Below are positions 3,069-24,005 of a stretch of 38,238 bases of DNA, piece by piece; within the stretch, counting starts at the first letter, position 1, and every line of letters starts with the position of its first letter. The stretch lies in the NCBI GenBank assembly GCA_964640425.1, contig CAZXFC010000001.1:46930-85167 (forward strand), given 5' to 3'. The translations under genes and the position numbers were made by a program. The DNA comes from an uncultured Candidatus Saccharibacteria bacterium. Its GTDB lineage: Bacteria > Patescibacteriota > Minisyncoccia > UBA11713 > 2-01-FULL-45-33. Under the pieces are notes generated by a model. It had not been told where the DNA came from. It worked only from the letters and a program-made list of their open reading frames with translations, and ran no database searches.

Positions 3069-5392
<2,324 letters not shown>

Positions 5393-11266: not shown

Positions 11267-11293
11267 GCACTTGGAAGCTTAGCTTCCAAGTGC
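11267..11293. repeat. REP-like perfect palindrome, family 1, upstream copy
   Basis: gcACTTGGAAGCT-T-AGCTTCCAAGTgc: 13-bp arms around a single central base. Confidence 0.95.
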
Positions 11294-11306
11294 TAGTATA
11301 AGCCGC

Positions 11307-11951
11307 ATGAGAAAAGAGGTTTTCACAAACGGTGAATTTTATCACGTGCATAACCGTGGAATAGATAAAAGGGTTGTTTTTGCGGATGCCGATGATTTTG
11401 AGCGTTTCCTGCAAAGTATGCAGGAATTTAATGTTATCGAACCAATCGGGAGTCTTTATGAATATTCGTTTTTAAAAGACAAGGTTTATAACCGTCGCCG
11501 CAAAAAAGGCAAATTGGTAAATTTTGTCGCCTACTGCTTAAACCCAAACCATTATCATTTTATTCTTGAACAAGCAGCAGAAAAAGGAATTGAAAAATTC
11601 ATGCAACGATTAGGAACCGGCTATTCAAACTATTTTAATGTTAAATACAAGAGAAATGGATCGCTGTTTCAGGGTACCTTCAAAGCCAAACACATTGATT
11701 CAAATGAATATTTGCTCCATTTAAGCGCTTACGTGAATTTAAATAACCGCATTCACCGACTTGGAAGCTTAGCTTCCAAGTCGAGTTGGAATGAATATGT
11801 AAATGAACAAAACGAGTTTTGCAATAAAAAGATTGTTTTAGATCAATTTAAAAATATAAACGAATATAGAGATTTCGCGGAGAGTTCCCTGAAAGACATA
11901 TTAGCCCGCAAGCAACTCTATAAAGAACTGGAAACAATTCTGTTTGATTAA
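11307..11951 (+). CDS. HUH/Y1 tyrosine transposase-like protein (REP-associated tyrosine transposase / IS200 TnpA family), 214 aa
   Basis: NPNHYHFIL (HUH motif), GEFYHVHNRG, and the SNEYLLHLSAYVNLNN helix carrying the candidate catalytic Tyr. Paralog at 23323-23964. Confidence 0.75.
   Translation: MRKEVFTNGEFYHVHNRGIDKRVVFADADDFERFLQSMQEFNVIEPIGSLYEYSFLKDKVYNRRRKKGKLVNFVAYCLNPNHYHFILEQAAEKGIEKFMQRLGTGYSNYFNVKYKRNGSLFQGTFKAKHIDSNEYLLHLSAYVNLNNRIHRLGSLASKSSWNEYVNEQNEFCNKKIVLDQFKNINEYRDFAESSLKDILARKQLYKELETILFD
11757..11783. repeat. REP-like perfect palindrome, family 1, intragenic in-frame copy
   Basis: cgACTTGGAAGCT-T-AGCTTCCAAGTcg, encoding RLGSLASKS within the transposase-like ORF. Confidence 0.95.
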
Positions 11952-11973
11952 CTTGGAAGCTTAGCTTCCAAGT
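11951..11973. repeat. REP-like perfect palindrome, family 1, downstream copy
   Basis: ACTTGGAAGCT-T-AGCTTCCAAGT. Its first base is the last base of the TAA stop. It lies between two convergent stop codons (11951 and 11977) and probably also acts as a bidirectional terminator hairpin. Confidence 0.95.
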
Positions 11974-11976
11974 CGG

Positions 11977-12720
11977 TTAATCATATGAACGTTCGCGCTC
12001 TTCAACCTCGCGGGCGGCGCAGCGATATCCGCAATAATCGCAATCATCGGACGGGCGCGGCATCTCGCCATCCAGACATTTTTTGATTTTTTGGAGCGTA
12101 GGCTCAATCCAGCCCGTATCGCCCGTGTAAGAGATTAGATTTATATAAAATTCCAACTTGCCGTCAAAGGCCTTTGCATCAACTTTTCCGGTGCAATAAA
12201 CAAAATACCCGGTTTTAGAAACTTCGTAACCCTTCTGGCGGAGAAGCCACTGATATATTTCCATCTGCCGTTTGTATCCGTCTTGCCATTCTTTGTCCAG
12301 CACCACAACCTGTTCTGCTTTCGCGGTCGCCTTGTAATCGACAATCATGTATTCTTTTTTTGAATCCTGCCAAAGGTCGTCTATCGCGCCGGTGATCAAG
12401 AAATTCGTCGGCTCGTGCAAATACTGAATGCCCTTGAAATTTTCACGCCAAATATCGAGTTCATTATGGGCCGCGGGCACAGCATCAATGCCATATCTTT
12501 TTTGTAAAGGATGCTGTGACCCGTTGGCGCGGTGAATATCGAATTCCGCTTTCAATAGCTTATCCACCGCGGAATTGAGCGAAAAAGGAAAACCCGGAGG
12601 ACGGCCTATGCCGAGCTTTCGGTCCAAATAGAAACACCTGGGGCATTCTACATATAGGTCTATCTTGGAACGGGATAGCTTAAAAGGCTTATCCGAGCTT
12701 TTATCGTAGCCGTTTTTCAT
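11977..12720 (-). CDS. PD-(D/E)XK nuclease, Cas4/RecB-like, with a Cys cluster
   Basis: GAIDDL (D), MIVDYKAT (D/ExK) and QMEIYQW (QxxxY) motifs. N-terminal CPRC plus C-terminal CDYCGYRC are consistent with a Cas4/AddB-type Fe-S cluster. Confidence 0.75.
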   Translation of the reverse strand: MKNGYDKSSDKPFKLSRSKIDLYVECPRCFYLDRKLGIGRPPGFPFSLNSAVDKLLKAEFDIHRANGSQHPLQKRYGIDAVPAAHNELDIWRENFKGIQYLHEPTNFLITGAIDDLWQDSKKEYMIVDYKATAKAEQVVVLDKEWQDGYKRQMEIYQWLLRQKGYEVSKTGYFVYCTGKVDAKAFDGKLEFYINLISYTGDTGWIEPTLQKIKKCLDGEMPRPSDDCDYCGYRCAAREVEERERSYD

Positions 12721-23300: not shown

Positions 23301-23323
23301 ACTTAGCTGTCGGACAGCTAAGT
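23301..23323. repeat. REP-like perfect palindrome, family 2, downstream copy
   Basis: ACTTAGCTGTC-G-GACAGCTAAGT. Its last base is the first base of the stop codon (23323-23325). Confidence 0.95.
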
Positions 23324-23964
23324 TAATCTAAAAGCATAGTTTCTAATTCTTTTTGCATAGCTTTTTTTTCCAGAATTGATTTTAAGGAATTTTCAGAAAA
23401 ATCCTTGTATTCAATAAGGTTCTTGAATTGTTTTAAAACAATATCTTTAGTACATAAAGATTTATCAATATTATTTAAATATTCATGCCGGCTTGAACGG
23501 AACTCATCACCTCTTATTTGATGAACCAAATTATTAAGATTTACATAAGCACTGACATGCAACAAATATTCGTTTGAATCTATATGCGCGGCTTTAAATT
23601 TTCCCTGGAACAGAACTCCGCTTCTTTTGTATTTGAAATTGAATCCCTGGGTATATCCGCCTCCCAGCCTTTTCATAAATTCGCTTATCCCGTTTTCCGT
23701 GCGCTGCCTTAAGATAATATGATAATGATTCGGATTAAGGCAGTAACAAACAATATCTACCAGCTTAGCTGTCCGACTGCTAAGTAGAGACTTATCTCGA
23801 AAAGAGTTTTCAAACAGGCTACCGATTGGATTTTTTGTATTAAATTCGGCCATACTTTGCAGAAATCTGTCAAAATCATCGCGATCAAGAAATACCGGCC
23901 GTTTGTCCGTACCTCGATTATAAATATGATAAAATTCCCCATTGGCAAATCTGACTTTTCTCAT
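23323..23964 (-). CDS. HUH/Y1 tyrosine transposase-like protein, paralog 2 (213 aa)
   Basis: NPNHYHIIL (HUH), GEFYHIYNRG, SNEYLLHVSAYVNLNN. Collinear with the 11307-11951 protein. Confidence 0.75.
   Translation of the reverse strand: MRKVRFANGEFYHIYNRGTDKRPVFLDRDDFDRFLQSMAEFNTKNPIGSLFENSFRDKSLLSSRTAKLVDIVCYCLNPNHYHIILRQRTENGISEFMKRLGGGYTQGFNFKYKRSGVLFQGKFKAAHIDSNEYLLHVSAYVNLNNLVHQIRGDEFRSSRHEYLNNIDKSLCTKDIVLKQFKNLIEYKDFSENSLKSILEKKAMQKELETMLLD
23763..23785. repeat. REP-like palindrome, family 2, intragenic in-frame copy (21/23 match)
   Basis: GCTTAGCTGTC-C-GACTGCTAAGT, within the codons for LLSSRTAKL. Confidence 0.85.
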
Positions 23965-23980
23965 GGTGCCAATATATTAG

Positions 23981-24005
23981 CACTTAGCTGTCCGACAGCT
24001 AAGTG
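23981..24005. repeat. REP-like perfect palindrome, family 2, upstream copy
   Basis: cACTTAGCTGTC-C-GACAGCTAAGTg, 16 nt upstream of ATG 23964. Confidence 0.95.

Follow-up and report, generated by a model that had tools for sequence, protein, structure and literature searches.

REPtrons are loci in which a gene for a REP-associated tyrosine transposase (RAYT) is flanked by its cognate repetitive extragenic palindromic (REP) sequences or by REPINs, the hairpin-forming doublets of REPs (Nunvar 2010, PMC2817692; Bertels & Rainey 2011, PMC3116915; Messing 2012, PMC3479197; Di Nocera 2013, PMC3733652). REPs that abut the stop codon of a RAYT gene have already been described (Nunvar 2010, PMC2817692), as have intragenic REPs and the palindromic elements found within other genes of Rickettsia (Di Nocera 2013, PMC3733652). 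The subject here is a pair of REPtron-like units in a 38,238-nt stretch of DNA (the window) from an uncultured Candidatus Saccharibacteria bacterium, a member of the Candidate Phyla Radiation (CPR). Each unit consists of a gene for a RAYT-like nuclease and a short palindrome that recurs on both sides of the gene and, in frame, within it. The arrangement is probably one of REP-like hairpins resident in the gene of their own RAYT-like nuclease, tolerated there in protein loops and homogenised by copying.

The resemblance to REP/RAYT systems begins with the enzyme, a Y1 HUH protein with the RAYT-type pattern of active-site residues and a predicted fold closest to that of 4er8, and extends to its inheritance: each genome holds one gene of each type, vertically inherited, and paralogs within a genome are divergent and carry different hairpins. 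Cognate palindromes flank the gene, one of them lying right after or over the stop codon, and palindromes are also dispersed in the genome, some as inverted doublets. The CPR system differs, however, in that the palindrome also lies in the nuclease gene, in frame and in two conserved loops, where it evolves with the flanking copies. In addition, the CPR palindromes are near-perfect and do not have the bulge required by E. coli TnpAREP, and their dispersed copies are few and often in coding sequence. REP/RAYT systems are usually seen as a nuclease gene with extragenic repeats, whereas here the repeat sits within the nuclease reading frame and changes in step with its flanks. This would make the gene a built-in record of the co-evolution of repeat and enzyme and a strong hint of enzyme action in cis, and the two paralogs with different hairpins in one genome are ready matched substrates for biochemistry. 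No account of cognate REPs at conserved sites in the RAYT reading frame was found in the RAYT/REP literature searched, an absence that is not proof that the arrangement is undescribed; within that literature, the result agrees with the preliminary description of the window, which was aware of no such property of RAYT or IS200 genes.

Rickettsia palindromic elements are roughly 100-150 bp long, whereas the units here measure 23-27 nt (7-9 codons) and have an identifiable cognate nuclease gene, which is itself the most densely occupied host. The two kinds of element are alike in being palindromic repeats that lie in frame in apparently functional housekeeping genes and add short peptide segments to their products (Di Nocera 2013, PMC3733652). 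The literature searched gave no account of REP-like coding inserts or of elements of the Rickettsia type in CPR bacteria. Short palindromes in frame in essential CPR genes (EF-G, tRNA synthetases, ATP synthase gamma) resemble what is seen in Rickettsia, here in a streamlined lineage of a very different kind, and such in-frame palindromes bear on gene calling, on protein alignments and on ideas about the diversification of protein loops.

The two units of the window and their hairpins

Unit 1 and unit 2 are paralogs whose proteins, of 214 and 213 amino acids (aa), are 61% identical. Their features are listed below in window positions; hairpins are given without a strand.

11267-11293: unit 1 upstream hairpin (GCACTTGGAAGCT-T-AGCTTCCAAGTGC), DNA folding energy -13.7 kcal/mol, z = -8.2; its 3' end merges into a promoter-like TGnTAnnnT box
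11291-11299, plus strand: extended -10-like box TGCTAGTAT, recognised from its sequence, 7 nt ahead of the unit 1 ATG
11307-11951, plus strand: unit 1 gene, an open reading frame for a RAYT-like Y1 HUH nuclease of 214 aa (Pfam Y1_Tnp, invariant residues, fold match to 4er8_A)
11478-11510, plus strand: unit 1 site 1 loop, codons 58-68, VYNRRRKKGKL; hairpin absent, LGSRASKK there in close relatives
11757-11783: unit 1 site 2 intragenic hairpin, codons 151-159, RLGSLASKS; perfect copy of the flank core, beginning right after invariant H150, -13.6 kcal/mol
11951-11973: unit 1 downstream hairpin, which begins on the final base of the TAA stop codon
23301-23323: unit 2 downstream hairpin, with a one-base overlap with the stop codon
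23323-23964, minus strand: unit 2 gene, the 213-aa paralog of unit 1 (Y1_Tnp match)
23494-23520, minus strand: unit 2 site 2 loop, QIRGDEFRS, without a hairpin; the motif xxF[RK]SSW is common to other homologs that lack a site 2 hairpin
23763-23785: unit 2 site 1 intragenic hairpin, LLSSRTAKL, a decayed copy
23982-23974, gene on the minus strand: unit 2 box TGCTAATAT, 9 nt ahead of the ATG
23981-24005: unit 2 upstream hairpin (CACTTAGCTGTC-G-GACAGCTAAGTG on the gene strand), which adjoins TGCTAATAT

The internal hairpin of unit 1 is a perfect 27-nt palindrome with 13-nt arms around a 1-nt centre, read in the gene as CGA CTT GGA AGC TTA GCT TCC AAG TCG. Its 23-nt core, ACTTGGAAGCTTAGCTTCCAAGT, occurs at exactly three places in the window, namely upstream at 11269-11291 (ending 14 nt ahead of the ATG), within the gene at 11759-11781 and over the stop codon at 11951-11973, and shuffled controls gave 0 matches at up to 3 mismatches. 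Unit 2 has a different core of its own, with flank copies at 23301-23323 and 23982-24004, and its internal copy, read on the minus strand, departs from the flank core at 2 positions. This internal copy retains 9 of 11 stem pairs and has a DNA folding energy of -4.5 kcal/mol (z = -1.0), no better than shuffles, while the intact copies of both units lie between -9.2 and -13.7 kcal/mol. Neither paralog has a hairpin at the internal site of the other, and no second copy of either unit was found in the window.

The preliminary description had reported the perfect palindrome of unit 1 as identical to its flanking repeats, a 21/23 copy of its own family in unit 2, and no palindrome in either paralog at the site of the other; all of this was confirmed, with the addition that the copy in unit 2 is decayed. 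Its judgement that chance was a very unlikely source of the copies also held, and a chance origin was rejected on the shuffled controls and on the recurrence of the copies across related loci. An assembly artefact was likewise ruled out, as 79 genome loci, each assembled independently, and metagenome contigs of several origins show the same in-frame layout.

Family-wide positions and cognate specificity of the hairpins

A sample of 79 related loci from CPR genome assemblies was scanned for hairpins. In a position profile of perfect hairpins with stems of at least 9 bp, drawn from 77 of the loci, four peaks only are seen, at -60 to -1 (57 loci), +180 to 239 (43), +420 to 539 (37) and the stop region (63). 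These correspond to a promoter-adjacent upstream copy, to site 1 near codon 60, to site 2 near codon 150 and to the stop codon, and almost no perfect hairpins occur elsewhere in the Y1 genes. The same profile gives 1.8 perfect hairpins per kb of Y1 coding sequence against a background of 0.26 per kb. When GC-rich hairpins with at least 8 stem pairs are counted in the 79 genes, 25 carry both internal sites, 22 site 1 only, 18 site 2 only and 14 neither. Hairpins lie on both sides of the gene in 69 of 80 cases (the 2 window units and 78 related loci). Among the flanks, L016 and L059 have composite double hairpins, palindromes of 34-45 nt, instead of single ones, and a composite hairpin at site 1 of L077 (nt ~768-819) is broken by NN, a sign that long palindromes may have been hard to assemble.

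This survey of relatives for intragenic cognate palindromes, which the preliminary description had proposed, overturned one of its claims, that the two internal palindromes lie at non-homologous positions and match their cognate elements twice, independently. There are instead two conserved family-wide sites, used together in the 25 genes mentioned above, and 71 of 75 internal hairpins are in the same reading frame. As read from their sequences, the hairpin persists at site 2 of unit 1 and has been lost from its site 1, and unit 2 shows a decaying hairpin at site 1 and none at site 2. Alignment of 36 relatives gives LGSxASKSSW as the family consensus for site 2; its LGSxASK part is the translation of CTTGGAAGC-nnn-GCTTCCAAG, and this peptide recurs in many members at site 1. 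Unit 2, like some other homologs, has [KR]I..xxF[RK]SSW where the site 2 hairpin would be.

Fixed positions could also arise if hairpins inserted recurrently and independently near their own gene and only those in two tolerant loops survived, so that a selection filter, and not descent with conversion, would produce the pattern. The hairpins are indeed mobile and found in frame in many genes, site 1 loops are longer with a hairpin than without one (median 16 versus 11.5 residues), and some site 2 hairpins are shifted by 2-3 codons, as in L012, L014 and L015. However, the single frame of the internal hairpins differs from the three frames used in other genes (24:16:3), the hairpin at site 2 starts exactly two codons after invariant H150 in most loci, and the site 2 loop is nearly equal in length with or without a hairpin (12 versus 11 residues). 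Loop length is thus partial evidence of insertion at site 1 and no evidence of it at site 2, and independent insertion is an unlikely account of the internal copies.

Cognate specificity was assessed with the 17-nt centre of the upstream hairpin of each locus as a probe. This core is present within the coding sequence of its own locus with 0 mismatches in 46 of the 79 loci and with at most 1 mismatch in 61, whereas only 1.5% of non-cognate gene-probe pairs match at that level; the cognate probe is the best or tied for best in 58. The claim of the preliminary description that the internal palindromes are cognate to the flanks was supported far beyond chance, and such palindromes are special to these genes. 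Stems vary widely among loci and are common within a locus, as with ATAGTAGACATCCGATGTCTACTAT, found at all four places in L076, and ATGGACACCCGGTGTCCAT in L062. The same holds within genomes, where in 5 of 8 divergent paralog pairs each gene carries its own hairpin (0-1 mismatch) and not that of its paralog (2-7 mismatches); the remaining 3 pairs involve either a gene that lacks a good internal copy or L011, for which the start is mis-set.

Beyond specificity, the copies bear marks of having been copied from one another. Loops are conserved within a locus and yet occur in either orientation, for example as GGG/CCC/GGG/CCC in L021, and orientation relative to the upstream copy is near random at every site; downstream copies are in the plus orientation in 34 loci and in the minus orientation in 25. 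The positional ortholog of unit 1, L084, has an A.C stem mismatch both in its upstream copy and at site 1, and the exact reverse complement of this stands at site 2. A derived TTA loop is found in all three copies of unit 1, and a CGA/TCG loop in L084, in L080 and in a copy within atpG of the window. Because loops are common in either orientation, orientation is random and the L084 mismatch is repeated, the copies are related by copying and not by independent selection for pairing.

Level of constraint and proposed origin of the internal copies

The peptides at sites 1 and 2 change along with the hairpin, giving pairs such as HRMSTI/HPMSTI, LGGETAK twice, LGSPTSK twice, and LGNPVSK/LGNGVSK, in which the loop is flipped. 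Codon use within the hairpins departs from that elsewhere in the same genes, with AAG making up 92% of Lys codons (28% elsewhere) and CTT 62% of Leu codons (21% elsewhere). In a set of 88 intragenic hairpins, stems covary strongly: 163 cells are altered on both sides, compared with 42 in shuffles, and G.U pairs are rare, being no commoner than other mismatches. Judged from these patterns, the constraint acts on DNA and not on peptide or RNA.

Selection of the peptide LGSxASK at the protein level, with the flanking hairpins derived from the coding sequence, would fit the site 2 family consensus. It is extremely improbable, however, and was rejected as a candidate, since complete changes of peptide accompany changes of hairpin (HRMSTI, LRCPAPK and CGGPTAT among them), synonymous codon choice tracks the palindrome, and other genes read the same DNA in different frames.

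A structure acting in the mRNA, where the hairpins would govern how fast the transcript is translated, how stable it is or how its 3' end forms, and where their likeness to the flanks would be secondary, is also improbable. Transcription would take in both internal sites and the stop-codon copy, and the predicted RNA fold of unit 1 (11307-11980) is unusually stable (z = -5.3). In that predicted fold a long-range helix joins the site 2 copy to the stop-codon copy and leaves the C-terminal third of the gene looped out, an automatic consequence of there being two copies of one palindrome. Against a role in RNA, stems are strictly Watson-Crick and G.U is no commoner in them than mismatches of other kinds, both orientations and both strands are represented among the copies, the inferred transcript does not include the upstream copy, and the hairpins are not followed by a T-run. 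A role as intrinsic terminators was rejected; the terminator scan called just two other stem-loops, neither of the family.

Both internal sites coincide with the least confident loops of an AlphaFold model, with a predicted local distance difference test score (pLDDT) below 50 at residues 59-65 (site 1) and a mean of 68 over residues 151-160 (site 2). This mapping of the insert sites onto a structure prediction had been suggested in the preliminary description, as had the idea of REP invasion or gene conversion tolerated in surface loops, which turns out to be the best fit: loops and a stem mismatch are common to the copies of a locus, the sites are low-confidence loops, and the peptides vary.

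At the upstream copy, the 3' arm of the hairpin (...CCAAGTG) passes directly into the TGnTAnnnT box and supplies its TG. The box is present within 30 nt of the ATG in 44 of the 79 loci, compared with 2.6% of random 30-mers, and ends 6 nt before the ATG in 26 loci; across the window units and the upstream regions of L001-L079, box ends 6-9 nt ahead of the ATG are a recurring feature of Y1 genes. A Shine-Dalgarno-like motif is found in only 5 of the 79 loci and in neither of the two window units' upstream regions (11291-11306 and 23965-23982). The absence of this motif, together with the closeness of the box to the ATG, suggests that Y1 genes are leaderless or near-leaderless, with a promoter abutted by the hairpin.

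A promoter-abutting hairpin is a possible natural place for autoregulation, and this copy and the internal ones may together be the protein's handle on its own gene. In its strong form this becomes a rival explanation, in which the internal hairpins are selected cis-acting sites and the nuclease throttles its own production by binding or nicking either its gene or the copy beside the promoter. The same two positions and frame are kept in a family whose proteins are 47-75% identical to unit 1, the upstream copy adjoins the -10 box in most loci, and auto-inhibition and strong down-regulation are described for E. coli TnpAREP. Precedents exist in phiX174 gene A and pT181 repC, which carry a nick site or origin within their own coding sequence. 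The likeness lies in a recognition site, here putative, for a tyrosine nuclease in its own coding sequence; those sites, however, are phage and plasmid origins of demonstrated function, whereas the hairpins here are chromosomal, multiple and dispensable in many members. With 14 of the 79 genes lacking both sites, 40 having only one and both window units having lost one, the internal copies are dispensable, which weakens any reading in which their function is essential, and a selected regulatory role cannot be essential. Loop orientation is random. Selected cis-acting sites are, overall, a doubtful explanation, though one to be taken seriously.

The preferred reading, REP-like hairpins tolerated in their own nuclease gene and homogenised by copying, can be put as a mechanism. 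Each unit would be a REPtron-like locus consisting of a vertically inherited gene for a RAYT-type Y1 HUH nuclease and a private REP-like hairpin, a near-perfect palindrome of 23-27 nt with a conserved foot (CACTTGG...CCAAGTG) and a locus-specific centre. The hairpin occupies up to four fixed places: against the extended -10 box, at site 1 in the loop before the HUH strand, at site 2 in the loop right after the helix of the catalytic Tyr and its His ligand, and over the stop codon. The internal copies are DNA-level hairpins in two sequence-tolerant protein loops, probably kept identical to the flanks by repeated copying in either orientation (concerted evolution), and the same hairpins are found at low frequency in other genes, in frame. 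The copying agent would most likely be the encoded nuclease, acting in cis on single-stranded hairpins by cutting and replacing them; by analogy with E. coli RAYT and IS608, we infer it to be the most economical candidate. Replication template switching may serve as an alternative agent.

A further step, that the nuclease acts on its own gene so that hairpin cores are cut and replaced in cis and two loops near the active site are rewritten as the REP 'master' changes, is quite unlikely; it would couple the sequence of the enzyme to its DNA target, and the enzyme might then also limit itself, either through nicks in the gene or through in-frame loss of the catalytic core that lies from site 1 to site 2. 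Among 27 metagenome homologs of the Y1 gene, no variant with a deletion bounded by hairpins was found, and every shortened match stops at a contig end.

Several observations weigh against the preferred reading. The 5' GTAG/CGTC tag of classical REPs is absent from the CPR hairpins, and the flanks of 102 distinct copies merely extend the palindrome by 1-2 nt (Y-C ... G-R) and hold no conserved guide or cleavage motif. The same exact 23-mer of unit 1 accompanies Y1 proteins that are 46-77% identical to it (e.g., L091, L097, L108 and L123), so protein and hairpin are not tightly co-diverging; either conservation is much stronger for the hairpin than for the protein, or lineages have the hairpin in common. 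The 14 genes without an internal hairpin and the 40 with only one are a further difficulty. The 88 hairpins of the covariation set were picked as hairpins, which makes their pairing percentage partly circular and leaves the position profile as the unbiased measure. The promoter and the leaderless state come from motif statistics only; a simple consensus scan for a classic sigma-70 promoter called none in unit 1, and the extended -10 pattern came from the comparison of the family. Finally, binding, cleavage and copying of the hairpins by the protein are modelled on E. coli RAYT and IS608.

Enzyme identity, dispersed copies and neighbouring genes

The predicted fold and the sequence motifs agree that the encoded proteins are Y1 HUH nucleases closest in fold to E. 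coli RAYT. The two units score 31.8 (unit 1) and 32.2 bits against Pfam Y1_Tnp (cut-off 23), but only 26.3 and 30.0 bits against the NCBIfam RAYT equivalog model NF047646, far under its cut-off of 80, a difference from known RAYTs. Residues H82, H84, Y142, N146 and H150, which make up the HUH motif, the catalytic Tyr and the Tyr-x3-Asn-x3-His pattern of metal ligands, are invariant in the 36-relative alignment, and H82, H84, N146 and H150 are spaced as are H59, H61, N119 and H123, the metal ligands of E. coli TnpAREP. The AlphaFold model has a mean pLDDT of 79.8, and its top Foldseek match in the PDB is 4er8_A, E. coli RAYT with a bound REP hairpin (E = 2.5e-4, probability 1.00, TM-scores of only 0.41 and 0.51), with IS608 TnpA chains ranking after it. 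A family sequence profile found no match among PDB sequences, and only the fold search gave matches, which points to a distant RAYT-like branch. About 2,950 relatives were found; all named ones are from CPR/Patescibacteria, and one had been named RayT by its source.

Members of the IS200/IS605 family, such as IS608 TnpA (PDB 2vjv, 2vic), are similar in being Y1 HUH enzymes of related fold with hairpins at both ends of a unit of ~0.7 kb. The CPR units differ from them in the random orientation of the hairpins, which do not form left and right ends on the same strand, in having no conserved guide or cleavage tetranucleotide, and in the absence of identical unit copies, the positional ortholog being in the same place at 72% identity. 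Around this ortholog, L084, the order of amylase, small open reading frame, Y1 gene and PD-(D/E)XK nuclease is the same as at unit 1, and the neighbouring genes are 66% and 81% identical. This synteny shows the Y1 gene to be vertically inherited, RAYT-like rather than insertion-sequence-like, and mobility of the whole unit in the manner of an insertion sequence was rejected on the same grounds.

Away from the Y1 genes, the window itself holds a further element:

4700-4737: dispersed hairpin doublet of the family-A type with CGA/TCG loops, in frame within atpG (4433-5392, minus strand) as a 14-aa stretch, DNA folding energy -20.3 kcal/mol

The two hairpins of this doublet, in the gene for ATP synthase gamma, are adjacent and have the opposite loops CGA and TCG, so that they can also fold as an 18-bp REPIN-like stem. 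The 79 loci contain, in 1.22 Mb of flanks, 24 cognate copies more than 200 nt from the Y1 gene, of which ~9 lie within long open frames of other genes. The density of cognate copies is accordingly far higher in the Y1 genes (87 in ~51 kb) than outside them (24 in ~1.14 Mb), at ~1.7 versus 0.02 per kb. The preliminary description had allowed that palindromes scattered in many unrelated coding sequences at similar density would make those of the nuclease genes nothing special. Such copies do occur in frame in unrelated genes, but they are ~80-fold sparser there, and within the Y1 genes the copies keep to two fixed positions and a single frame.

A metagenome scan for the exact 23-mer of unit 1 returned 124 copies, 44 of them at Y1 genes (15 upstream, 14 at site 2, 13 at the stop codon and 2 at site 1) and 80 away from Y1 genes, 43 of these in open frames of at least 150 aa. 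These other genes use all three frames of the hairpin, translating it as LEAKLPS (24), LGSLASK (16) and TWKLSFQV (3). The six hosts checked were EF-G (L121), ArgRS (L124), GluRS (L176), TsaD (L125), tRNA-guanine transglycosylase (TGT; L138) and NAD synthase (L109). The housekeeping-gene copies on other CPR contigs (metagenome loci L088-L187) are sometimes doublets, and they resemble Rickettsia palindromic elements.

Directly downstream of unit 1 lies a convergent gene for the PD-(D/E)XK nuclease (11977-12720, minus strand), the neighbour kept in L084 at 81% identity. The presence of this second nuclease beside the hairpin locus is probably plain synteny.

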